Positions 3,761-21,348 are shown, numbered from the whole stretch's first letter. The stretch is DNA of 59,624 bases, filler included, from 5 parts of 5 records of this genome joined end to end with filler, not necessarily neighbours in it, one strand, 5' to 3'. Made by a program: numbers and translations. Notes: generated from the sequence alone by a model not told the origin.

Positions 3761-6700
3761 TTAGGCTTGCGGCTGCGTTTCGCTGCCGGGCGCTACGGAA
3801 GGGTTGGGGCTAGATTCATCGGTTGCGGCCTGGCCCCAGCGCAGCAGTGCCGCACGGATTTCGAGCGGGCGGACGGGCTTGGGCAGGAAATCGACCATGC
3901 CGGCTTCAAAACAGCGTTGGCGGTCTTCGTCGGCCGTGTTTGCCGTCATGGCAATTATGCGTGGCTGAGTGGGCTGGTCGGCACTTTCACTTAAAATGCG
4001 TCTGGTGGTATCCACCCCATCCATGCCAGGCATCTGCACGTCCATAAAAATTATATCAATGGGATGTTGACGCTGCAGTTCAAGGGCTTCGTAACCGCTT
4101 TCGGCATTGAGAACTTCAATCTTCCATTTGCGCAGAATAACGCCGATAATTTTGCGATTGACGGCGCTGTCATCCACCACCAGGACTTTAAGTTCGGGGT
4201 CGGGCAGCTGTTTGGGTTCAGGCGCGGGCTCTGCTGATTCAGCTCTGGACGGCAGCAGGCGCGCAATCTCCTCACGCAGCCGTTGATGTCTAAGTGGTTT
4301 GACGATCAGCGCGTCGTACAGCCTCTGGTCTTTTACCGTAAATGTATCAACAACAGATCCGAAGGATAACAATAGAATTTTGAATTGGCGCGGATCCCGG
4401 CGCAGCTGCTGCAAAATGTTAATGATATTTTTTTCGTCAAAGGAACAGTTAAACACAAGCAGATCCAGCTGCTCTTTTTCGGCGAAGTGCTCCTTAAACT
4501 CGTCCATGTTGGAAAATGCGCCACTCTCAACACCAAGCCCACTTAACAAACCCAGCGTGTTATTGCGGCTCACAGGGTGAGCGTCCAGTAGCACTCCGCG
4601 ACTGCCTTCGCGCACTACCGGGGGCTGCGTCACATGTTTTGTTGAAGTCTGGAAGTCAGCTTTAAACCAAAATATTGAGCCGCGCTCAGCATTTGATTTC
4701 ATGCCGATCTCACCGCCCATCAAGTTAACAAGTTGACTACTGATCGCCAGGCCAAGTCCTGTACCACCGTAGCGACGTGACATGGAAGAATCCACCTGTT
4801 CAAATGCGCGGAATAAGTTTTCACGATCTTTTTCCGGAATACCAATTCCGGTGTCACGCACTTCACACAACAGTTTAACAGAACCTTCAGCTGTTGTCTC
4901 AAAGTCGAAATAAATGTGAACGTACCCCGCAGGTGTAAACTTGACGGCATTACCCACCAGGTTCATGAGAATCTGGCGCAGCCGCGTAGGGTCACCGACG
5001 AGCTGTCTTGGCAGCTTGGCGGCGTATCCACAAATCACTTCGAGTTTTTTCTGTCCCGCTGCGGGAGCCACAACGCTGAGGATATCATCTACCAGTTGAA
5101 CCAAATTAATTTCAATGGCTTCCAGGACAAGTTTGCCGGACTCAATTTTGGAGAAATCGAGAATGTCGTTAACAATTGCAAGCAGCGAGCGGCTGCTGGC
5201 CTGGAGTGTTGAGATAAACTCGCGTTGCTCAGGCGAGATGCGCGTTTCTGAGAGTAACTCGGTTGCGCCAACGACTCCATTCATGGGCGTGCGGATTTCA
5301 TGACTCATGGTAGCCAGAAAGTCGGACTTCACACGTGCCGCACGTTCGGCTTTGTCTTTGGCATTGCGCAACTCAAGCTCGGCAGCTTTGCGCTCCGTAA
5401 TATCCTGCGCGGTCCCCTGCATACGCAGAACGCGACGGTCCTCTCCCAGAATACAGGCTCCACGCGCAAGCACGGTGCGCTCCGTGCCGTCGGGCCTGAC
5501 GATGCGATGTTCAACTTCGTAGGCAGAACCGGTCTGGGCGGCTGTCATAACGGTCTGCTGCAGCCAGTCGCGGTCTTCTGGATGTATCAATAATTGATAC
5601 TGCTCTGAACTAACGCTGCCCTGACCATTGGGCACTCCAAAGATTTCATAGAGTGTTTCGGACCACTCCAATTCTTCTGAATTTCCATCGAATGACCAGG
5701 AGCCAATTTTGGCCAGACTCTGAGCTTCCAGCAATTGTGCCTGGCTGCGCCGCAGGTGTTCCTCTGCATTGCGCGATTCTGTAATATCGCGCACAACCAC
5801 TAAATACTCACGTAAGGCGGTCAGACGCACACGGGCTTCAAAGATGAGGATGTTGCCGAGTGGATCCGGGAGGGTAAACTCCACCACCTGTAATTCGTTG
5901 GATTCATAGGCCCTCTTGAGACAGGCATCAAAGATTTCGCCGCTTTCGGAAGGCATGATGCTGCTGAGCTGCTTTCCTAAAAATCGCGAGGGCTGCAGGA
6001 TCAGAGACGCGCCTTCGGCGGCGTGATAATCAATGACTTGACGTTCGGCGTCAAGGTGGAAAATCAAATCCGGCAGCGCGGCAATGATAGCTCGCCCTTT
6101 GGCTTCAGCTTTGCGCAGGCGCTCTTCCGCCTCGCGTTGACGCGTAATAATTGCATGAATACCAATGATGCGGCTCGGCATGCCGTCAACTCTGCGCTCA
6201 ACTACCCGGCCACGCGTGTGCAGCCAGGCATAACTGCCGTCGTAGCGCCGCAGGCGATACTCCATCGAAATACGGTCGCTAATTCCGGCGGTAACCAGAC
6301 GTACGGACTGCATGACTGCAGTCACATCTTCCAGGTGTACCATCCGCAGCCATTGATTAACTGTTTCTGGTGCACCGCTCGCCTGATAACCGAGCATGTT
6401 AATCCAACTCTGCGAGATGACCAGGTTGCCGGAGTCAACATTCCAGTCCCATACGCCATCGCCACTGCCTTCCAAGGCCATGCGCCAAATTCGCAACTCA
6501 TCGACCGTCGAACGCTGCTTTTCGCCGTTTTCCTCAACTTCAACCGCCATCCCGGCTATCCGAACCACACGACCGAGCGAGTCCAGCTCCGGCTCCAATA
6601 GCAGGCGGGCGTATTCCTGGCCGCCAACGCCGGTAAACTCAAGCAGCGTTTCCACCGCCGAGGCATTTTCAACGCAGACTTCACACTCTTCGGCCACCCG

Positions 6701-7683: not shown

Positions 7684-10377
7684 ATGTTTAGATACATCAA
7701 GCGAAAGACAGTATTATTTCTCTGTCCGGCACTGTTTCTGGGTTGCATGTTACAGAATGGTCATGCGCAGATGCGCATGCAGCAACTAGCTTTTAGTGCT
7801 ATAGAATCTGCGATTGGCGATTTCAGAACTGGAACACCCAACTTCAGCAGTCTCAATCGCTCGGGCTTTGAATGTATGGCACATGCCGAAGCTGCAAACG
7901 GCGACCTCCTCTTCTGGCTCTCGGCATCACTCAATGGCAGTGCCGTCGGCCTGTATTTGCCTGACGGCACGCTGATTCCGGATTCAGACCAAATTTTTGC
8001 AAGTAGTTCAGCAACAGAAGCGATTATCTGTCCAGTGCCGGGAAGTCCAGGACAGTATTACGTGATAACCACGGACCTGACGGACCCGACGCCGAGTCTT
8101 TTAGATCCGGCGCCGCGCATCGAGGATTCGCGCACATATTATTCCATCGTGGACCTCAATCTCAACGGCGGAATTGGCGGCATGGTCGAGACCAATACGC
8201 TGATTGGAGATTTGGCAGACTTCCCCGCCGAAGGCATGGAAGTCATTGCCTTGCGCAATCCCTGCACAGACATTTACGATCGATATATGCTTGTGCAATA
8301 CGACATGAATATCGATGCGTTTACCACGCGCATTTTTGATGCCGACGGTTTTCGCGACCGCGTCGTAATGTTTAACTATTCCGAGCCCAACCGCTTTAAC
8401 GGGCGCGGCGAACTCGAATTCCACCGCGGCAAAATCGGCATGGCTTTTTCGAATTCAGGGCGTGCCCTTGTGTTTGACTTTGAGCCCACAACCGGTGAAC
8501 ACTCAAATGAAACCGATATCAATATTGAGCGCGACGGCCCATTCGATTTAACGCTGCATCCGCCTGGTGGCCTTGAGTTTTCGCCCGACGGCACAAAACT
8601 GTATCTCTCCAGATTCTTTTGGCTGGCAAATTCAGTTTATCAGGTGGATCTTACGAATGGCCTGCCCCAACAGAAATACAACATCGATCGCAATCCGGGT
8701 GCCATCGAACTCGGCCCCGACGGCAAAATTTACATCGCCAGTCAACAGTTCCTGGCGGTTATCGAAAATCCGGACCTGCCCTGGAACGGCGGCGATAATT
8801 TCCAGCGAATCACGGAAGGTGGCCTGCTCGATCTGTCCTTCGGCATTTCCGACCCGGTGCAGTATCACACGGTGCCCTATACAATCGATGCGCAAGACAT
8901 ACCGATTACAACTACGCCCGAAGAATGCGCCTGCGATGGCCGCGTCACGCTCAGCGCTCCGGCCGGCCTTGAAAATTACCTCTGGAATCCTGGCGGAGAG
9001 ACGACGCGCGAAATCACCGTAACGGCCTCCGGCCGCTATTCTGTCACCGCCTCCGGCGGCGGATGTGATTTCGCCTCTCAGGAACTCGAAGTCGCAATCA
9101 CACGGCCACAGGCCGAGCTGCAGCTCACAGACGCGCAGACCCAAACCGGAAGTCAGCTGGCCTACAGCCTGCAGTACAACGGCCCCGCACGCGATGTGAG
9201 CTGCCCGCCGCTCAGTGCCGAAATCACGCTCAGCATCGAAGACGGACTGCTCGAATTCTCCGATGCACCCGACCTGACTGTCACAAACACACAAATCAAT
9301 AACGGCAGGCTTGAAGTCAGCTTCCAGGCGGCAATCAATGCCGACGGCGTCATCGGCCCGCTAAATTTTGCCGTTTGCCCACAGAGCGCGGCACGCAGCG
9401 GCACATTTACAATCGAAAGCGCCAGTATTACAGACTGTGACTTTGACCTGAGTTTTAACGAAGGCGGACTCACAATCGAAGATGCGGACATTCAGATTAC
9501 CGGCGACCTGGCACTCTGCTTCTGCAGTCCTGAGACCGTTCTTTCCGCGCCGGACGGCTTCAGCGCCTACACCTGGTTCCCCGGCAACATCAGCGGGCAA
9601 AATCTGACCGTCGATTCGCCCGGCGACTATTTTGTGGTAATTGCCACGTCCGGTGGCTGTGAGTTAACATCCGAAACCGTCACGGTTGAAGCCGAAGATT
9701 TTGCGGTTGAAATCAGCTTCGGAGAGGCTGCCGGCGCGCCGGCGGATCGTGTTAACGTCACGCTCGACGCAGCTGTCAGCGGCAGCGCCACGGCCGAATG
9801 TGCGCCCGACGAATTTATCATGACCATGCAGTACAACCAGTTCGTGGCTGCAGCGCAGGATTTGCCCGCAGCACTTGAATTGATTCAGATTGAGCGCGGC
9901 GGCGAATTTGAATCGGTGCAGTTTCGCGGAGCGCTGAGCGACCTGCCGCTGGAGATTCCATTTATTCTGCTGGCGGACATTGAACGCGTCAGCGACGTGA
10001 CGGTCAGCCAGTTTGAATGGCAGGACTGTGATGCCGACGCAGCCCAATTTGTGGATGGACGCCTGGAAGTGGACAGCCTTTGCATTTCAACGCGCGTAGT
10101 TCTGCTCTCCGGCGCGACGCTGATGACGGTAACCGGCCCCAATCCCACAGACTCAGAGACGCGCGTCAGCTTTGAGACGGTCAAAGATGGGACCGTCCAG
10201 CTGGAGTTGCGCTCAATTACCGGCAGTCTAGTCCAGCGCATCGAACATCACATGCTGCCGGCCGGCGAATATCAGGAAGTGCTCGATCTTTCCAGCCTCG
10301 TAAGTGGGCAGTATATTTTACTGCTGCGCAAGCCCGGCGGCACGCATGAAAGCTGCCTCCTGCACGTCACACACTAA
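7684..10377 (+). CDS. Secreted protein with beta-propeller and Ig-like repeats and a C-terminal T9SS type-A sorting domain
   Basis: Signal peptide; GLEFSPDGTKLY and IELGPDGKIY blades; repeated LSAP.G...Y.W.PG...G.Y.V....GGC modules; C-terminal GPNPT...LRSITGSLV...DLSSLVSGQYILLL. Confidence 0.8.
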   Translation: MFRYIKRKTVLFLCPALFLGCMLQNGHAQMRMQQLAFSAIESAIGDFRTGTPNFSSLNRSGFECMAHAEAANGDLLFWLSASLNGSAVGLYLPDGTLIPDSDQIFASSSATEAIICPVPGSPGQYYVITTDLTDPTPSLLDPAPRIEDSRTYYSIVDLNLNGGIGGMVETNTLIGDLADFPAEGMEVIALRNPCTDIYDRYMLVQYDMNIDAFTTRIFDADGFRDRVVMFNYSEPNRFNGRGELEFHRGKIGMAFSNSGRALVFDFEPTTGEHSNETDINIERDGPFDLTLHPPGGLEFSPDGTKLYLSRFFWLANSVYQVDLTNGLPQQKYNIDRNPGAIELGPDGKIYIASQQFLAVIENPDLPWNGGDNFQRITEGGLLDLSFGISDPVQYHTVPYTIDAQDIPITTTPEECACDGRVTLSAPAGLENYLWNPGGETTREITVTASGRYSVTASGGGCDFASQELEVAITRPQAELQLTDAQTQTGSQLAYSLQYNGPARDVSCPPLSAEITLSIEDGLLEFSDAPDLTVTNTQINNGRLEVSFQAAINADGVIGPLNFAVCPQSAARSGTFTIESASITDCDFDLSFNEGGLTIEDADIQITGDLALCFCSPETVLSAPDGFSAYTWFPGNISGQNLTVDSPGDYFVVIATSGGCELTSETVTVEAEDFAVEISFGEAAGAPADRVNVTLDAAVSGSATAECAPDEFIMTMQYNQFVAAAQDLPAALELIQIERGGEFESVQFRGALSDLPLEIPFILLADIERVSDVTVSQFEWQDCDADAAQFVDGRLEVDSLCISTRVVLLSGATLMTVTGPNPTDSETRVSFETVKDGTVQLELRSITGSLVQRIEHHMLPAGEYQEVLDLSSLVSGQYILLLRKPGGTHESCLLHVTH

Positions 10378-14187: not shown

Positions 14188-14292
14188 CGTATTGGATAAG
14201 GACATGTCCTGAGCAAACACTCCGCAAGACAGACAGGTGTAGAACGCGAAGCACACAGCAGCGAGGGACTTGGGGGTCATATTCAGGCCTTC

Positions 14293-14874
14293 TTATTGTA
14301 CGTTCGACAAGTTGGACAGCTGTTTTCGGTATATAATATTATTCTCAATAGCTTGCGCAATTGCGACCTTCAGAAGCTTTACGGTACATGGGGTTCTGAT
14401 GCTGACATCGGCAATAGCGCTCCGCTGTACAGTGAGGTCATCATAAGTGAACTTGTCTGAAAGGATGGCAATCGGCACACTTGAGTTGATCGAGCGAACC
14501 TTCAGAAGCCAATCAATGGCATCATCCAGGCACTCGAAAACATCGATGTCGACAACCAAGATATAGTCATCCCTGAGAAAGGAAATGGTGAACGAGGGAT
14601 CCTCTGCATCATGAAAGAAAATCTTCGAGCAACAGCCGATCAACGAATGAGCCTTGTGCCAGATAAAGGAGTCATTCTTGGACACAATGTAAATTGACGT
14701 ACCTTGAAGTGCGATTGGTTTCTCGCAAGCTGCAGCTCGCTCAAACATAGAAATACTAGATGCGACTCTGTCACCACTGCCGACCGTGCTATGCAAGTAT
14801 TCCCCCCCATCTTGGCAAGCGACGCAGTACGTAACGTCGAAGAGTACTGGTGCAACAACGACAATGCTTATCAC
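14293..14874 (-). CDS. Hypothetical protein with an atypical (pseudo-)receiver-like domain; start uncertain (possibly ATG 14748)
   Basis: ILVVDID...DAIDWLLKVRSINSSVPIAILSD...ADVSIRTP pattern of a CheY-like fold, with RTP in place of the conserved KP. Confidence 0.5.
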   Translation of the reverse strand: MISIVVVAPVLFDVTYCVACQDGGEYLHSTVGSGDRVASSISMFERAAACEKPIALQGTSIYIVSKNDSFIWHKAHSLIGCCSKIFFHDAEDPSFTISFLRDDYILVVDIDVFECLDDAIDWLLKVRSINSSVPIAILSDKFTYDDLTVQRSAIADVSIRTPCTVKLLKVAIAQAIENNIIYRKQLSNLSNVQ

Positions 14875-15014
14875 AGAAGATCGGCGGCTTAATTGAGCAA
14901 AAGACCGAGATGTGCTTCTATAGATGACCTGTTGTCTATAGTAAATACTCAGAGTAGTCTGATGATTATGAAAGCATACCTGTTAGTTTCTTAGCGACAA
15001 GAACTGGAAGATGA

Positions 15015-15311
15015 TCATTGTCGTACGACTTCTCCGATTACTGCATCGATTGCAGTAGTAGCAACATCCCGAGCAGTCGCAGAGTGTGCCCGAATTGCAG
15101 TCAGAACCGCAACGGATGTGCTTGGTGCATTAGTTGCTATGTTCAGAGCAAGAAGCGCGAAGTACTCGTCACCACCGATCGCTTCGGACGTTTGACTAGC
15201 AGCACAAAATGCAGAAAACTTGGCTATTAAAGTAGCCAAATCCCCGAAAAAACCGTGATCCGATAAAAAAGTTAAGGATGCGTCAGTAGCAACAGGGTGA
15301 CGTCTCGAAAA
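15015..15311 (-). pseudogene. Fragment or short third paralog of the secreted repeat proteins
   Basis: Frame is open from 15311 and reads FGDLAT...IGGDEYFALLALNIATN-x21-VATTAIDAV, matching FGDMAT...LGGSADTGAIVLNIASN-x21-LSTTALGAV of 19420-20349; no signal peptide or ATG in frame (TTG at 15239 only). Confidence 0.55.
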
Positions 15312-15345
15312 TCAACAAAATTGGTTGGCCACGCGGTTTAAAATA

Positions 15346-15981
15346 TCATAGACCAGTTATTTCACTAACTATGGAAGAAACACCTGACTGAATTTCGCCA
15401 GAGTTCACGGCACCAATAGCAGTTGCCGTTATCTGACCTACAGACGCGCTTATCTGAGTAATCTGATTTTCAACCCTACCTCGAACAATTGCTTCGTTGG
15501 CGGAAATGTTCAGAACCAAAACAGCGCCATCAAAACTTCCTCCAAGCTGTGCCAATTGCATATATGATGCATTTGTCGTTGTGGTTGTGACTTGATCCAA
15601 CACCATGTTTGCACCCGTCCAGATGCCGGTGCTGAAATTCTCAACCTGATCTAGAATAACCTGACCTGTGTTGACACCACCGATAGACAAAGCATCTTCG
15701 CTTTCAACTTCGAATACTGCTAAAGTGCTAAGAGCTTGTGCGGCGTATACTTCAGAGGTTATCTCGGGAATTGTAACCCCATAGATCGTGTTGCTGATGG
15801 TGCCATCGATCAAGGCAAAGGCCGGATCAAATGTCATAGGGTGGAAAGCGGTTTCCGCAGCGTTCACGAAGACGCCATTCAACATCGGGTTATTAAACGA
15901 TGCCAGAACACGTTCCAAGACAGATTCAGCAGAAGCAGGGCCTGCGCACACAGACACCAAAAGAGCCATAGGACAACCCAC
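15346..15981 (-). CDS. Secreted repeat protein, paralog of 19420-20349 (candidate minor subunit); start may be CTG 16026
   Basis: Signal peptide ending GPASA-ESVLERVL; shared motifs NGVFVNAAE, IDGTISN, IGGVNTG, LGGS, LNISAN, TAIGAVNSG. Confidence 0.8.
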   Translation of the reverse strand: MGCPMALLVSVCAGPASAESVLERVLASFNNPMLNGVFVNAAETAFHPMTFDPAFALIDGTISNTIYGVTIPEITSEVYAAQALSTLAVFEVESEDALSIGGVNTGQVILDQVENFSTGIWTGANMVLDQVTTTTTNASYMQLAQLGGSFDGAVLVLNISANEAIVRGRVENQITQISASVGQITATAIGAVNSGEIQSGVSSIVSEITGL

Positions 15982-16688
15982 ATTCTGGCAGAAACGTCTT
16001 GAAAGTGTATACGACTGACGTTTCAGGTCTCTGCCCCCCTCTGTTGAGCTAGTAAGCCCTGCTTGGATATAACAGTCTCAGATTTTATACTGAACTATCA
16101 GTCATTTACGTATCTGTCACACGACCGGGTTTCATACCAATCTTTTACGATGACAAGCTTAGCATAGAATCATCAGCAAAGCGATGCCATTTCAGGCATT
16201 TTTCAGCATTTTCTAAGCAGTAAGTGGACAGAAACGTTCGAGATTGTCGACCCGCTGGTCTCGGCTTGAAACCAGCGGGTCTCCAGAGGGCTCTCACCGG
16301 GGAGCAAGAGCGCCCTCGACTGCTGTCGCATGGCAAAAAAGACAGCAGCCGATCCAAAAAGTTCGGAGGTTCGGCAACACGACGTGTGCGCCCGTTCGTG
16401 CGCCGAACCTCGACTGGGTCTTGCCTAGGGGGCGAAACAGACCCAGCACCGCATCATCGGGCAGTTGATGATGCGGGTTTTGGAAAAAAACTGCTGCATA
16501 AAAGGCGTGTCGGTACGATTCTTCCTTCTGATATTTCCACTAAAACCCATCATATTCAACTGTTTATGTGGAACTTGATAATATGGAGACGTCTGATCGA
16601 AGCTGTGTAACGACCAGTGCACTCTGCAATGTCGTCTGCTCTAGCCCATACGATTCAGATCAGTACAATCTGCGCTTTACAGAAGGGT

Positions 16689-16889
16689 TCAACAGTTCCT
16701 GAGTGCCTTAGACAGGCTGCCCACGCCATCGTCACGCTGCCCCAGAGCAATTTCGATATTGCCCTTGGTGATCCATACATCGGCATCCTCCGGGTCATTT
16801 TTCAGAGCATTGATGCAATCGGCGAGCGCTGATTGTAGCATTCCTTTTCGTATTAGTAGAGCCAACCGCGCTCTCAAGGTTGTAAACAT
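16689..16889 (-). pseudogene. TPR-repeat fragment (probable gene relic)
   Basis: SALADCINALKNDPEDADVWITKGNIEIALGQRDDGVGSLSKAL is a TPR unit; the frame ends after 66 aa and is followed by in-frame stops. Confidence 0.5.
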
Positions 16890-16918
16890 GACGCGAGCTA
16901 TCTGCTTAATCTATAAAT

Positions 16919-19366
16919 TTACGTATTAACTTTTGATGGCACGAACCGATACAGGGGTCCGTTGTAATCCGGGTTGTATCCAAGCTTGTCGATATATGGC
17001 TGCAAAACTTCTGTGTGCGGCAAAAGGAATTTAGAATATCTTTCCCAGCGATAAGCAGATTCTTTATAAATCGGCTGCGTAACTTGTCGGTAGCTTGGTG
17101 TATTGATTTTTTTTCGCGATAAAGCTGTGGATCGATATTCAGTTAAAGAGTCCTCCCAATCCAAACCAATATTGCCTAAGAGTTGTTTCACTTCCGTTTC
17201 AAAGTCGGCTACGATACTTTCGTATCGGTAAAGGACGATATTGGCATCTGTTTTATCCAGAATGCCCTCAAGAATGGAAAGTGCTCGATCATATAACGTG
17301 CAGGCCGTTTCTAACTTCAACATGCATGCCATCGCGGGATTTATATGAAAATTCTGCATGAAATTACTAAGTATTGAGTCGAAGGGGTGGCGCGAAGCAA
17401 AAATAACAGGGGCGTTTGGAAACATCGTGTGAATGATTGGTAGACTCAAAATGTGCAAAGGAAGCTTGTCAAAAACTATTTGACCGCGCGTGTCGCAACT
17501 TCCAAGCTCTGCTTGCACGTTGCGCAAATAAATACTACGACAGTGTGATAGTGTTTTTTCATCAAAGTCGGTAAATCCTCCACCATCCTCAGCATCTGAC
17601 TGGCCTCGCAAAACCGCTGACATGGCATGTCTAAGCATGGGGCGTTCTTCAATCACCGATATTCGCGAGTGAGTACGCAAAACAGTGTCAAGGAGAGTTG
17701 TGCCTGACCGGGGGAAGCCAACGATGAAACCAATCCTTGGTTCGTCATAGCCACTTAATGTTGTAAAATTGGGTGAGAAACCTGTCTGCTTACTGTGTGA
17801 GACTTCACGGTCGAGCCTGTTCAACAGTTTATGTGCCATCAAGCTCGGATCGGGGTCGTCACTCAAAAACAAATCATTCATTTTAACAAAGCATTCCATG
17901 GCAGCATCTGGTCGAACCAGTTTGTCTAAAGCCTCGCCAAGAACAGCAAAATAACGTTTTTGAGAATGTTTGGAAAGCTCATTAGTTGAGACTGCCTCGA
18001 GTCGCTTTACTGCAAGGGAGTACTGTCTTTGCCTGCAAAAAAGAATTCCCTCAAGGAAGGTAAGAACATTTTTTGATTCCGAACATTCGCGAATTGGCTC
18101 AAGCGCAAGTTCGGCCTTGTCTAACTGTGACTTGAGTTCAAACGCATTGAAGAGGCGTTCGGCGACCCTCATAGGGCGATACCCCTCAGAGGCAAGCTTC
18201 GAATAAACTTCGATTGCCTGATCTGGCCGACCAACGGATTCTAAACAAACTGCATAATCATACATATCCTCATGGTGCTCGATGAACGGAACGTACTCGT
18301 CAAACACCTTAACTGCTTCAAGTTCTTTCCCGATTGCAGCAAGACTTCTCGCAAGGCCGAACCCTACTTTGGGATTTTTTGGCGCATACGTCTGTGCATG
18401 CTTAAAAAAGTCGGCAGCCTTAGAGTGGTCTCCAATGGCAGAATAAATCGTTGCCAGCCCAGAAAATCCCTCAGAACTTCTAGGGTTTACTGTGAGTACT
18501 TTGCTGTATTGGCTGATTGCTTCATCTAAATTACCCAATTTATATTGAAACCATGCGGTGTTGAGCAAGATTTTCTCGCTACGGGGGTTCTTTAGCAGTG
18601 CCTTGCGAGTTGCCCTAAGAGCAGCTTCATATTGGCCCAGTTCGCCAAGCACGGCACCATGAGAGAAATGTTCCTTTTCAGTTGCATTAGGACAAATCGT
18701 CGCTGCTTCGTAATGTTTAATCGCAATCTCAAGTTCCCGGCCAGCCGCATATGCAGCACCCATTGCTGCATGACTTATCGCCGAGTTAGGTTCTAGTTCT
18801 ATTGCGCGACTAGCGGTTTCCACTGCAGAGCTGACTTCTCCGGCATCAATAAAGGAGTAGCACGCCGCGATCAAAAGTAGCGCGCTTTTAGGATGATGGC
18901 CGATTGCTTCGCCTAGCAACTGATTAGAAGCCGAAAAATGTCTTATTTTGCGTAATGCATTTGAGTAGTTAACAAAAAAATTTGGACTTCGGTTCCCTAA
19001 CTTGTGAGCCTTTTTGTATATGTCTATTGACTGGTCTATTTTTCCTTCACTAAAGTAGGCTGTTCCTAAATTATTGAGTGCATCGGCATCAGTCGGAAAT
19101 TTTTGATGAAGGTGATAAAAGTATTTTTGGGCTCCGCTAAAATCACTAACCGCCATGCAAGCCGCACCAGCAATCATGAGTACACTTTTATTATCGGGGT
19201 TTCTCTTCAGAAACTTTTGGGAGGCGCGCTTGCACTCTGAAAATTTACCGCTCTGGTAGAGACGTGCAATACCTCCTGCATCGTAGCTGATGCCATTGAT
19301 GCCGAGTTTGCCGACCTTAGAGTTTGGATAGTGCTGTCTGCGGTATCTTGAGGGCATTTTAGGCAC
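16919..19366 (-). CDS. TPR-repeat sulfotransferase (PAPS-dependent, Sulfotransfer_3-like)
   Basis: Many N-terminal TPRs; 5'-PSB FIVGFPRSGTTLL; DKLP; 3'-PB RHPFDSILSNF; YESIVAD; TPSYRQVTQPIY; GTG 19366 with GGAGG RBS 8 nt upstream. Confidence 0.9.
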   Translation of the reverse strand: MPKMPSRYRRQHYPNSKVGKLGINGISYDAGGIARLYQSGKFSECKRASQKFLKRNPDNKSVLMIAGAACMAVSDFSGAQKYFYHLHQKFPTDADALNNLGTAYFSEGKIDQSIDIYKKAHKLGNRSPNFFVNYSNALRKIRHFSASNQLLGEAIGHHPKSALLLIAACYSFIDAGEVSSAVETASRAIELEPNSAISHAAMGAAYAAGRELEIAIKHYEAATICPNATEKEHFSHGAVLGELGQYEAALRATRKALLKNPRSEKILLNTAWFQYKLGNLDEAISQYSKVLTVNPRSSEGFSGLATIYSAIGDHSKAADFFKHAQTYAPKNPKVGFGLARSLAAIGKELEAVKVFDEYVPFIEHHEDMYDYAVCLESVGRPDQAIEVYSKLASEGYRPMRVAERLFNAFELKSQLDKAELALEPIRECSESKNVLTFLEGILFCRQRQYSLAVKRLEAVSTNELSKHSQKRYFAVLGEALDKLVRPDAAMECFVKMNDLFLSDDPDPSLMAHKLLNRLDREVSHSKQTGFSPNFTTLSGYDEPRIGFIVGFPRSGTTLLDTVLRTHSRISVIEERPMLRHAMSAVLRGQSDAEDGGGFTDFDEKTLSHCRSIYLRNVQAELGSCDTRGQIVFDKLPLHILSLPIIHTMFPNAPVIFASRHPFDSILSNFMQNFHINPAMACMLKLETACTLYDRALSILEGILDKTDANIVLYRYESIVADFETEVKQLLGNIGLDWEDSLTEYRSTALSRKKINTPSYRQVTQPIYKESAYRWERYSKFLLPHTEVLQPYIDKLGYNPDYNGPLYRFVPSKVNT

Positions 19367-19384
19367 AATTCTATCCTCCAAATA

Positions 19385-19408
19385 GGACGACGGCTTGCGC
19401 CGTCGTCC
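19385..19408 (-). terminator. Intra-operon hairpin / weak terminator after the major secreted-protein gene
   Basis: 10-bp stem GGACGACGGC/GCCGTCGTCC with GCAA (GNRA) loop on the - strand, followed only by TATTT and then the sulfotransferase RBS. Confidence 0.65.
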
Positions 19409-19419
19409 ATTTTTTTGCC

Positions 19420-20349
19420 TTACTGGCCGCTAGAACCGCCCGTGGAGGAACCCACGATACCAGCAACAGCAGCATCAACACCGGACACGATGGTACCTGT
19501 GTTAACTGCACCAAGTGCGGTGGTGGACAGGTTGCCGATCGAGCCGTTGACCTGATCCATCACGTTGTTGATGGAGCCGTTCACGCCGGTCATGTTCGAC
19601 GCGATGTTCAGCACGATTGCACCGGTGTCAGCCGAACCACCCAGCTGGTTGACAACTGCCGAGATGGCGTTTGTGCTGGAGGTCGATGCCTCATCGATGG
19701 CGGAGTTCACGCCCAGAGTGATGTCGCCGGTATTCACAGCACCAAGCGCCGTGGTGGCCATGTCGCCAAAGTCGAGCGTTGGCATGTTCCACTCGATGGC
19801 CGACACGTCGATCGACGCGATGGCTTCCTGAGTAGCGCCGTCGATGCCGTCGATCGTGTTGTTGATCGAGCCATCGATGCCCTGCAAACCAGACACCTCA
19901 ATCAGGTCAGCTTGGAAGCCGTTAGCATAGTTGCTCGTTGCGTTCGAAACAGCGTTAGCGCGATTGTTAACTGCGTTGTTGTAGTTGTTGACTGCGTTGT
20001 TGTAGGCATTTTGAGCAGCCGTGTTGGTCAGGTCCCAATCCGCCGGATCGGGTTCAGCAGGAACGGGGTTCGCCAATTCAGCAGCCGCAATAGCGTCAGC
20101 AAGACCTGCTAGATACTCAGTTTCTGAGATAACGTTGCCGTTAGGATTGCCAGTGGTCAGTTCGTTATACACCGTAACAGCAGAACCGTTACCGATGTTT
20201 TCCGCGATGTTGGCGAAGGTGCCGTTGACGGACGCCAGATTGGTGGCGTTGTCGATCTGGTCCAGAACACGTTCCAGAACCGATTGTGCCGACGCAGCGC
20301 CGCTCAGAGCGACGAGTGCGATGGCGGAAGTTGCAAGAAGCTTTTTCAT
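19420..20349 (-). CDS. Secreted Asn/Gly/Ser/Thr-rich repeat protein (candidate major fibre or anchor subunit)
   Basis: MKKLLATSAIALVALSGAASA signal peptide; two internal repeats G[IV][DN]GSINN...TTALGAVNTG; GAGGG RBS; strongly biased codons in the conserved parts. Confidence 0.85.
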   Translation of the reverse strand: MKKLLATSAIALVALSGAASAQSVLERVLDQIDNATNLASVNGTFANIAENIGNGSAVTVYNELTTGNPNGNVISETEYLAGLADAIAAAELANPVPAEPDPADWDLTNTAAQNAYNNAVNNYNNAVNNRANAVSNATSNYANGFQADLIEVSGLQGIDGSINNTIDGIDGATQEAIASIDVSAIEWNMPTLDFGDMATTALGAVNTGDITLGVNSAIDEASTSSTNAISAVVNQLGGSADTGAIVLNIASNMTGVNGSINNVMDQVNGSIGNLSTTALGAVNTGTIVSGVDAAVAGIVGSSTGGSSGQ

Positions 20350-20501
20350 GCTTTCCCTCATTTCAATTCAAGACCGGCCCCTGTCCACCAGTCCCTAGAT
20401 TGTTAAAGGGGGGGTAAGGGCCCCTTGGCTGGTGCCCTTTGACGGGCCCCCCCACTGGCTTCCCCCATCCCGGCGAAATCAGTGGAATTTCTACTCCGTG
20501 C

Positions 20502-21347
20502 TTACGGATCTGCAGCGTCCTCCTGTCCCGGATCGACTGCTGTGCTGTCTTGTTCGGCGTCCACGACCTCGTCTTGGGGCGCGGCGTCGGCCGTTTGTGT
20601 TTCCTCGGAGGATTCCTCGGGCGGAGTGAGAAGTTCATTGGCCTCTATCGTCAGCTCTAGTGCTCGCTGAACGACGATGGCTGTCGCATCTCCCCGCGGG
20701 CCGTCCATCCCAAGTTCGGCGGCACGACGCAGGGCTTGGCCAGCAAGCCGTACGAGTTGCAAAGCCTCTGCCGCCTTTTGGGCCTGGATGTCCGGCGTTG
20801 TGGATGCGATCGACTCCTCCGCTGCAGCAATCGCGCGCGCGGCAAGCACGGAGGCTTGGTTGGAAAGCTCGTTGATATGCTCTTCCACCGAGATCGCGGC
20901 ATGTTCACGCGCCTCGCCACCGTTTTGACCAGCCGCCGCTGCCGTCTGCGTGTCTTCCGCTCCGTTGGCCGCTTCTGCGGCTACCTGCAGCGCATCTCGG
21001 ATTGCCTCAGGCGATCCATTGCGATGCGGGCGACCACCGCCAGCGAATGCCGAGATGGACGATCTGCAATTCTGGTACGCGGCCTCGTTCGCAACCTGAC
21101 CAACCAGTTCGAAGGTTGCGAGGCTCAGCATCTGGCGAAGAACAAAATGCACCGCCTCGCGCTCCTGCCCACCGGCTTCAAGGCTTACCAGAGTATCGCC
21201 AAAGAACCGCCCGACACTTGCGCCGACCTCGCGTGAAAACATTTGCCGCTGTAAAGGAACACTAGCCACGATCCGGCCCGTAAGGGCATCCGTCATGGAA
21301 AGATCCAGACCGACAAGAATACGATTCTGGCGATAACTCGGGCCTAC
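20502..21347 (-). CDS. CsgG/HfaB-family outer-membrane secretion pore, 5'-truncated by the contig end, with an Ala-rich C-terminal extension
   Basis: Frame is open to the contig edge: VGPSYRQNRILVGLDLSMTDALTGRIVASVPLQRQMFSREVGASVGRFFGDTLVSLEAGGQEREAVHFVLRQMLSLATFEL, collinear with the C-terminal half of CsgG/HfaB as recalled (V.LDLR..D..T..[IV]...V..QKQI..REV.AGVF.F......E.G....EP....[LV]R..IE.A..E). Confidence 0.75.
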   Translation of the reverse strand, partial: VGPSYRQNRILVGLDLSMTDALTGRIVASVPLQRQMFSREVGASVGRFFGDTLVSLEAGGQEREAVHFVLRQMLSLATFELVGQVANEAAYQNCRSSISAFAGGGRPHRNGSPEAIRDALQVAAEAANGAEDTQTAAAAGQNGGEAREHAAISVEEHINELSNQASVLAARAIAAAEESIASTTPDIQAQKAAEALQLVRLAGQALRRAAELGMDGPRGDATAIVVQRALELTIEANELLTPPEESSEETQTADAAPQDEVVDAEQDSTAVDPGQEDAADP

Positions 21348-21348
21348 G

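Follow-up and report, generated by a model that had tools for sequence, protein, structure and literature searches.

A candidate type-VIII-like export locus of Rhodobacteraceae with a new secreted protein family, a small conserved partner and an interchangeable enzyme slot

Few pore systems of the CsgG family are known in any detail; to our knowledge they are curli, the holdfast anchor and curli modules carried by phages. Cytoplasmic enzymes of the tetratricopeptide-repeat (TPR)/GT41 type modify exported surface proteins; examples are flagellin glycosyltransferases such as FlmG, and HMW1C, which acts on the HMW1 adhesin. The roles of HfaA, HfaB and HfaD in holdfast anchoring are described in two sources (PMC6707917; bioRxiv 10.1101/2022.07.20.500906). 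Here we describe a locus on contig 2 (positions 14188-21348) of a 59,624-nucleotide stretch of DNA, called the window throughout, which consists of several contigs with N spacers between them. All long open reading frames (ORFs) of contig 2 lie on the minus strand. In order, they are the 3' part of a pore gene of the CsgG/HfaB family, secA (encoding a secreted protein), a TPR-sulfotransferase gene, a TPR remnant, secB (a paralog of secA), a further paralog remnant and a receiver-like gene. Inspection of the ORFs bore out the strand and order given by an earlier sequence-only reading of this DNA. The best explanation of contig 2 is that it represents the downstream two thirds of an export locus of a type-VIII-like kind (CsgG/HfaB pore), with a patchy distribution in Rhodobacteraceae. 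A superficial survey of the literature on CsgG/HfaB in Rhodobacteraceae, Roseobacter, Phaeobacter and Alphaproteobacteria found no description of such a system.

The pore gene occupies 20502..21347 on the minus strand (281 codons); its frame is open up to the contig edge, which truncates it, and the first ATG, at 21296, lies 17 codons inside that edge. The fragment matched Pfam CsgG (PF03783; E 4.4e-7, 29.9 bits against a cut-off of 20.8) and NCBIfam HfaB (NF037935; E 1.9e-8, 33.8 bits), which confirms the earlier proposal that a CsgG/HfaB-like gene emerges once the ORF is extended to the edge. The Pfam match covers residues 12-90 (about 21078-21314, minus strand), corresponding to profile positions 128-206 of 210, that is, the last third of the model, where the CsgG domain ends. 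After it comes a C-terminal extension of ~190 residues (about 20505-21050, minus strand), which is acidic, rich in Ala and Glu and characteristic of this subfamily. When the pore was searched against the PDB by phmmer, CsgG chains were matched with E 0.006. The fragment is 92% identical over 281 residues to a full-length protein of 467 amino acids from the closest relative, Nioella ostreopsis (locus L005). This full-length protein scored 39.5 bits with Pfam CsgG, 72.8 bits with the HfaB equivalog model (below its cut-off of 300) and 12.9 bits (E 0.056) with the curli CsgG model NF011731 (PRK15184), whose cut-off is 505. An hhalign comparison of the pore-family alignment with an alignment of 31 true HfaB sequences gave a probability of 99.6% (E 1e-24), the match spanning only positions 7-261 of 461. 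Since the match ends at position 261, the C-terminal ~200 acidic, Ala/Glu-rich positions are an extra part of this pore subfamily; and since the HfaB cut-off was missed in spite of the strong hhalign result, the pore is a relative of HfaB and not an equivalog. Judged from these profiles, it is nearer to HfaB than to CsgG.

Bacterial lipoproteins are recognised by a lipobox. The L005 pore has the lipobox LLLASC, and a Cys-containing, lipobox-like N-terminus is found in most other members of the family; the window copy is without its 5' end. By analogy, the product is predicted to be an outer-membrane lipoprotein channel. In four of five carrier genomes, the pore gene adjoining secA is the only PF03783 gene of the genome. 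It may be noted that in a Nioella metagenome-assembled genome (MAG; locus L007) the CsgG-like pore gene is split by a repeated element of 1059 nt (L007:5532-6590 and 8097-9154); a copy with 99.8% identity is found 2.5 kb upstream, and a partial copy in inverted orientation stands where the locus starts.

The gene following the pore, secA (19420..20361, minus strand), encodes 313 amino acids with a classical Sec signal peptide. The mature protein is strongly acidic and contains no Lys, Cys or His, two Arg, 29 Asp plus Glu and 40 Asn. The GSINN / TTALGAVNTG repeats noted earlier proved to be a true internal duplication: residues 157-234 matched residues 255-311 with a BLASTP E of 8e-14, and at the level of the family the repeat reached an hhalign probability of 98.4%. 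The second gene, secB (15346..15981, minus strand; 211 amino acids), is a short paralog without the long variable middle of secA, as proposed before and supported by BLASTP (E 7e-22, 36% identity over 157 residues). Secretion of the secB product had been claimed as well; a signal peptide is present, although it is short and has no basic N-region when translation begins at the first canonical start, GTG 15981. The secB frame is open for 33 codons further upstream (15982-16080, minus strand), with no ATG, GTG or TTG there, and the ortholog in N. ostreopsis begins earlier, with TTG, and has a better signal peptide. A 74-codon ORF at 15015..15239 (minus strand), described earlier as a fragment of a third paralog, matched secA weakly (E 0.011). 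In a small search it matched the C-terminal part of a full-length paralog from locus L018 (E 1e-7, 36% over 64 residues), and it is 85% conserved in L005; by these matches it is a C-terminal remnant of ~70 residues.

Neither secA nor secB matched a Pfam family at E <= 1 or any NCBIfam model, and among 114 diverse members of the family no Pfam family was matched by more than one member at E <= 0.01. The absence of the curlin (CsgA/CsgB) repeat from the cargo, an earlier observation, was upheld: no match was obtained in secA or secB (Pfam, E <= 1), nor was one common to the 114 members. A profile search of secA against the PDB gave no match, and relatives of secA were not found in PLSDB plasmids, INPHARED phages or IMG/VR viral contigs. 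A word-indexed search returned 697 homologs at E <= 0.001 among 8000 scored candidates; the best 120 bore no informative name, and those with a named organism came from Nioella, Phaeobacter, Yoonia, Celeribacter, Pseudotabrizicola, Pseudorhodobacter and Loktanella. An exhaustive hidden Markov model search of 1.84 billion representatives gave 257 clusters (50% identity) at E <= 0.001, 188 at <= 1e-10 and 93 at <= 1e-30. Many of the 150 representatives listed were matched in two stretches, covering ~60 N-terminal and ~150 C-terminal profile positions, with a middle of variable length between them, and the alignments contain long invariant runs at both ends while the middle is free. The architecture is one of a conserved N-terminal segment, a variable middle and a conserved two-repeat C-terminal domain. 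On these searches, the secA family appears to be a new secreted protein family.

Genomes were scanned with one genome per species, and ORFs were called and then clustered. This yielded 53 loci, in 51 of which secB was matched by tblastn. Adjacency was counted where 1500 nt or more of DNA precede the first secA-family gene. A pore gene lay less than 400 nt upstream of that gene in 31 of 46 genome loci. A scan of metagenomes added 79 loci, and here the pore was upstream in 25 of the 42 with enough upstream DNA; hence the proposed co-localisation of the secreted paralogs with a CsgG/HfaB pore was found in both sets. Where 300-1499 nt were available upstream, a partial pore gene was seen in 7 of 16 metagenome loci. 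The number of secA-family genes per pore locus was one (six loci), two (17 loci), three (six loci) or four (two loci).

A conserved gene for a secreted protein of ~185 amino acids, cluster c3, lies directly upstream of the pore gene. It was present in 30 of the 31 pore-bearing genome loci and in 25 metagenome loci. Many genera share the order c3, pore, secA and the short gaps between these genes, even where pore identity falls to about 35%. Because the contig ends before c3, this gene is missing from the window and from the earlier account, and tblastn with the L005 proteins found neither c3 nor the 5' part of the pore gene elsewhere in the window. The CsgF model (PF10614) matched one of 23 members of c3, with E 0.029 and 15 bits against a cut-off of 25.8, and a profile search of c3 against the PDB, which includes CsgF chains, gave no CsgF match at E <= 10 and no match at all. 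By the tests run, c3 would be a new family of accessory proteins. Three resemblances of c3 were rejected. An NTG motif shared with secA was a visual impression (hhalign 1.9% after trimming of the signal peptides), likeness to CsgF was equally visual and met the single match given above, and an hhalign probability of 93.8% to HfaA, obtained before trimming, covered signal peptides only and fell to 0.5% (E 0.11) afterwards.

Conserved adjacency, together with the roles of CsgG and HfaB, makes it quite probable that the pore exports the secA-family proteins. The closest parallel is Hfa of Caulobacter (HfaA-HfaB-HfaD, with HfaE). For comparison, real hfaA-hfaB-hfaD operons were fetched from Caulobacterales-type genomes with the HfaD model (order-level matches in 65 of 121 genomes; reference loci L054-L056 and L062-L090, without L082). 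Like Hfa, the present system is alphaproteobacterial and has an HfaB-like lipoprotein pore, a gene order of small secreted protein, pore and larger secreted protein, and cargo rich in Asn, Gly, Ser, Thr and Ala. On one alternative reading it is a highly diverged holdfast-anchor system: c3 and the secA-family proteins, exported by the HfaB-like pore, would fasten a polar polysaccharide adhesin to the cell's outer membrane and would form no appendage of their own. The gene order of the fetched loci and the higher score of the L005 pore with the HfaB than with the CsgG model speak for this explanation, as does the known biology of Hfa (PMC6707917). There is also a lead, and a lead only, from the secA homolog P0118, whose nearest named ESM-Atlas clusters carry Pfam HfaD at 0.83, under the bar of 0.9.

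We nevertheless consider a diverged holdfast anchor unlikely. The NCBIfam HfaD model (NF037936) matched in none of the five carrier genomes at E <= 1, while the Caulobacter control was positive. When signal peptides were trimmed and the HfaD alignment (29 sequences) was used in hhalign, c3 against HfaA gave 0.5% and secA against HfaD 0.1%, compared with 69% for the control, HfaA against HfaD; together with the missing Pfam and NCBIfam matches, this places the secreted paralogs outside characterised families, a point on which the sequence-only reading had asked for a check. Unlike that of Hfa, the pore carries the C-terminal extension described above, and it scores below the cut-off of the HfaB equivalog model. 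The locus has no linked genes for holdfast polysaccharide, and polysaccharide synthesis genes are absent from the conserved neighbours. One to four cargo paralogs, a hypervariable middle and plasmid-borne copies are foreign to Hfa, as are two-component regulators of its own and swappable enzyme genes.

With curli (type VIII) the locus shares a PF03783 pore above the cut-off, adjoining Sec-dependent cargo, paralogous subunits and a small secreted accessory protein. It differs from curli in having no curlin repeat and no CsgE or CsgC, in the low score with the CsgG equivalog model (12.9 bits), in the CsgF match of a single c3 protein under the cut-off, and in a predicted subunit made of a sheet core and a helical hairpin instead of a beta-solenoid.

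This structural prediction was obtained by AlphaFold2 from a diverse alignment of 114 rows, with identities down to about 28%. The model of secA had a mean predicted local distance difference test score (pLDDT) of 85.4 and a predicted template modelling score of 0.60. Strands were placed at residues 44-79 and 149-287, which are the conserved segments; the variable part, residues 80-147, formed a helical hairpin, and a short C-terminal helix was seen at 294-306. An AlphaFold2 run with a shallow alignment had been confident for the variable middle only, with pLDDT < 50 in the conserved parts, and was superseded by the 114-row run. A prediction of a three-copy complex of residues 26-313 scored 0.00; the alignment was not used and there were no controls, so that the result is informative neither way. 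As modelled, the conserved ends would build a beta-rich core from which the variable middle protrudes as a helical hairpin.

The model bears on a further alternative, namely that the secA-family proteins are exported through the pore but are non-polymeric surface or released proteins, such as an adhesin, a coat or a decoy, with a hairpin diversified by phages, grazers or hosts. The AlphaFold2 monomer is a compact beta core with a hairpin, predicted with good confidence and with no need of partners. The middle varies in sequence and in length (the listed family matches range from 62 to 652 residues, the shortest being fragments), and there are orphan paralogs and copies on small mobilisable plasmids. 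The distribution is patchy: among 401 sampled genomes of the family to which genome G001 belongs, eight carry the secA family at E <= 1e-10, two of these being seed genomes. On the other hand, both ends of the proteins show very strong conservation from genus to genus, including long stretches without any change, as is expected of assembly interfaces more than of a monomeric surface protein, and several paralogs stand in one operon. We regard non-polymeric proteins, like the holdfast anchor, as an unlikely account, and we give the formation of a surface polymer by the secA-family proteins somewhat less than an even chance.

The gene between secA and secB (16919..19381, minus strand; an 820-codon ORF for a product of ~810-820 amino acids) starts at TTG 19381, GTG 19366 or ATG 19357, the choice being uncertain. 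Its identification as a TPR-sulfotransferase was sound: the product matched Sulfotransfer_3 (PF13469) over residues 552-744 with E 1.3e-27 (98 bits against a cut-off of 27), and many TPR families as well. A signal peptide is absent, and the sulfotransferase domain opens with the motif FPRSGTT, which we take to be the 5'-phosphosulfate-binding loop for 3'-phosphoadenosine 5'-phosphosulfate. The GC content of the gene is 0.45, compared with 0.56 for secA and 0.61 for the pore gene. Directly after the secA stop, a GC-rich hairpin with a 10-bp stem (19385..19408, minus strand), followed by TATTT on the minus strand, was found by pattern matching only; it may act as an attenuator or a terminator separating the enzyme gene from that of the subunit.

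When contig 2 was compared with L005 by blastn, 86-90% nucleotide identity was obtained on both flanks and none at 16491..19413. This swapped cassette is the sole part of contig 2 without a nucleotide match to L005, and in L005 the slot is filled by an ATP-grasp gene (L005:10970-12394, Pfam). Another locus from Nioella, L007, also carries an ATP-grasp gene, which shares only 34% identity with the one in L005. Of the candidate accessory ORFs, 20 of the 75 from genome loci and 19 of the 23 from metagenome loci were scanned. Sulfotransferases were among them in two of the 53 genome loci (L001, L019) and two of the 79 metagenome loci (L107, L112). That of L001 is an ortholog of the window enzyme, with 51% identity; the other three are of a shorter TPR-sulfotransferase type whose sulfotransferase domain is 23% identical to that of the window. 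A TPR-GT41 protein occupies the accessory slot in L008, and TPR-only proteins were found in L006 and L091, the latter cut by the contig end. Within the window cassette, a 66-codon ORF with about two TPR repeats (16689..16889, minus strand) had been read as a TPR relic. Pfam recorded TPR matches below threshold only; in a small search it was matched best by the TPR-GT41 protein of L008, within the N-terminal TPR part (E 4e-7, 42% over 60 residues), and the relic is probably the remnant of another TPR enzyme gene. The ~350-amino-acid ORFs of cluster c19, near some of the arrays, were considered as ATP-grasp proteins of the L005 type and rejected, as they are not similar and gave hints of E 0.03-0.07 to ATP-grasp-type ligases only.

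As these sequence comparisons indicate, the slot is variable and has repeatedly recruited cytoplasmic enzymes, a sulfotransferase twice independently, and the sulfotransferase is an optional add-on and not part of the core. The sequence-only reading had called it dedicated, which does not hold: few loci have one, and the closest relative has an ATP-grasp gene in its place. The arrangement resembles that of FlmG and HMW1C in that TPR enzymes without a signal peptide, and ATP-grasp genes, stand in or next to a subunit array, in a slot that varies between close relatives. It differs in that the enzyme here is a sulfotransferase, that the modification is predicted only and that most loci have no enzyme. 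A superficial survey found no literature that links a TPR-sulfotransferase to flagellin glycosylation. We find it rather doubtful that the cargo is sulfated.

Taken as a whole, the locus is best explained, with slightly better than an even chance, as a type-VIII-like export locus with secA-family cargo, c3 as partner and swappable enzymes. In such a locus the secA-family proteins would cross the inner membrane by Sec, as their signal peptides show, and pass the outer membrane through the adjoining CsgG/HfaB-like channel. From its position, c3 may be a pore-associated partner, an adaptor or a nucleator. At the surface, the conserved ends would serve as a beta-rich core for attachment or self-assembly with the variable hairpin exposed, a picture drawn from the AlphaFold2 model and the conservation. 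The interchangeable, cytoplasmic enzymes of the slot would most likely act in modification, prior to export, of the subunits or of a partner molecule, and the recurrently linked hybrid histidine kinase, LuxR-type regulator and receiver-like protein may control expression.

Several results weigh against this explanation. The link between pore and cargo rests on gene adjacency and analogy. Where the upstream DNA sufficed for a count, no pore adjoined the secA-family gene in 15 of the 46 genome loci and in 17 of the 42 from metagenomes; most of the 15 hold a single gene, and some lie on small plasmids or in genomes with a pore locus elsewhere. In the searches described, neither c3 nor secA was detectably related to a known type VIII substrate or accessory protein. 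The strands of the secA model are long (9-11 residues) and resemble an antiparallel sheet, not a curli-type solenoid, so a polymer is not indicated by the model itself. Enrichment of N-x-S/T sequons in secA was considered and rejected (9 compared with 6.75 +/- 2.2 in shuffles). Finally, in most pore loci the ORFs scanned next to the subunit genes include none for a modifying enzyme, and modification is therefore not essential; a slot that is variable and mostly empty is in keeping with an enzyme that modifies the cargo or a partner molecule in some loci, and not with a dedicated core component.

That the adjacency is regulatory or coincidental, the secA-family proteins residing in the periplasm or outer membrane and the CsgG-like lipoprotein having another role, would suit the third of loci from which the pore is absent, but is very improbable in view of the c3-pore-secA order and short gaps kept over such pore divergence. 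A distinct type-VIII-like locus, as inferred earlier from the sequence, thus stands as regards the pore and the co-localisation, though not as regards a dedicated sulfotransferase. The boldest version, a type-VIII-exported roseobacter fibre or coat with an exposed hypervariable hairpin and subunits customised before export by a sulfotransferase, a GT41 enzyme or an ATP-grasp ligase, is in our view decidedly improbable. If true, it would be the counterpart of flagellin modification islands for a curli-type pathway and, in the window, a sulfated bacterial surface protein.

Several further genes are linked to the locus. Cluster c4, a hybrid histidine kinase and a LuxR-type response regulator joined through a common receiver domain, was found in 21 of the 53 loci; the earlier account missed this module because the contig ends. 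An exported protein of ~180 amino acids, cluster c6, was found in 12 loci, and a receiver-like protein, cluster c5, in 15. The window member of c5 (14293..14874, minus strand) has no output domain and had been described as an atypical receiver. Pfam Response_reg matched none of the 15 members at E <= 1, whereas all 13 PDB matches of the c5 profile were response-regulator chains (best E 0.0023) and the alignment has an invariant Asp in a VDID motif; the call stands as a weak one. The window gene matched NCBIfam RprY with E 6e-4, far under the cut-off. At the other contig edge, the first 31 codons of a gene for a PG_binding_1-domain protein are present as a partial ORF (14188-14280, minus strand). 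In L005 this gene also comes after the receiver-like gene, and members of the same cluster (c29) occur in L007 and L018.

In RNA libraries (four runs, each of a different study), contigs were found that match the pore gene and both conserved ends of secA, and in two of the four runs a single contig extends from the pore gene into secA. As the middle segment differs, such a contig comes from a relative. Such contigs do not prove transcription, their depth is unfit to rank genes and uncovered parts of the locus carry no meaning; they are a weak hint of expression of the locus.

Some observations were made in passing. On contig 1, a histidine-kinase/receiver-like stretch (3845-5416, minus strand) is 27-31% identical to the system-linked hybrid kinase of L010 and may be unrelated. 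In two Gemmobacter genomes, a 1449-1544-amino-acid RTX (HemolysinCabind) repeat protein is encoded directly after the secA-family array (L026:12600-17234, L040:12633-16982). Contigs with secA-family genes are filed under Blastococcus, Geodermatophilus, Nitrospira and a gammaproteobacterial MAG (L016, L047, L029, L002); they are short and look like contamination, mis-binning or plasmid carry-over, not true hosts. One secA-family gene lies on an apparent small, high-copy, mobilisable plasmid (L017:1-4470), and L016, L029, L039 and L157-L161 are similar. The 4.47-kb contig of L017 had a coverage of ~9036, compared with ~79 for L001 in the same assembly, and its ORFs were labelled, by reading translations only, as replication-protein-like, helix-turn-helix and relaxase-like, the last split over the contig ends. 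In a metagenome contig of 39.6 kb the secA match recurs at intervals of about 8.8 kb, which looks like repeated assembly of one circle.

In our best reading, this is a novel form of a known kind of system, type VIII or holdfast-anchor-like secretion: the cargo family and the small partner are new, and a modification enzyme that is optional and swappable goes with them. To the CsgG-family pores the locus adds a distinct and well-conserved cargo family (the 257 clusters given above) and a new accessory protein. The carriers are Rhodobacteraceae, which live on algae, particles and surfaces. If the secA-family proteins form a surface structure, attachment could be approached through them in several marine genera that can be cultivated (Nioella, Celeribacter, Tropicibacter, Yoonia), and the swappable enzyme slot would be a natural experiment on the modification of a secreted structural protein.

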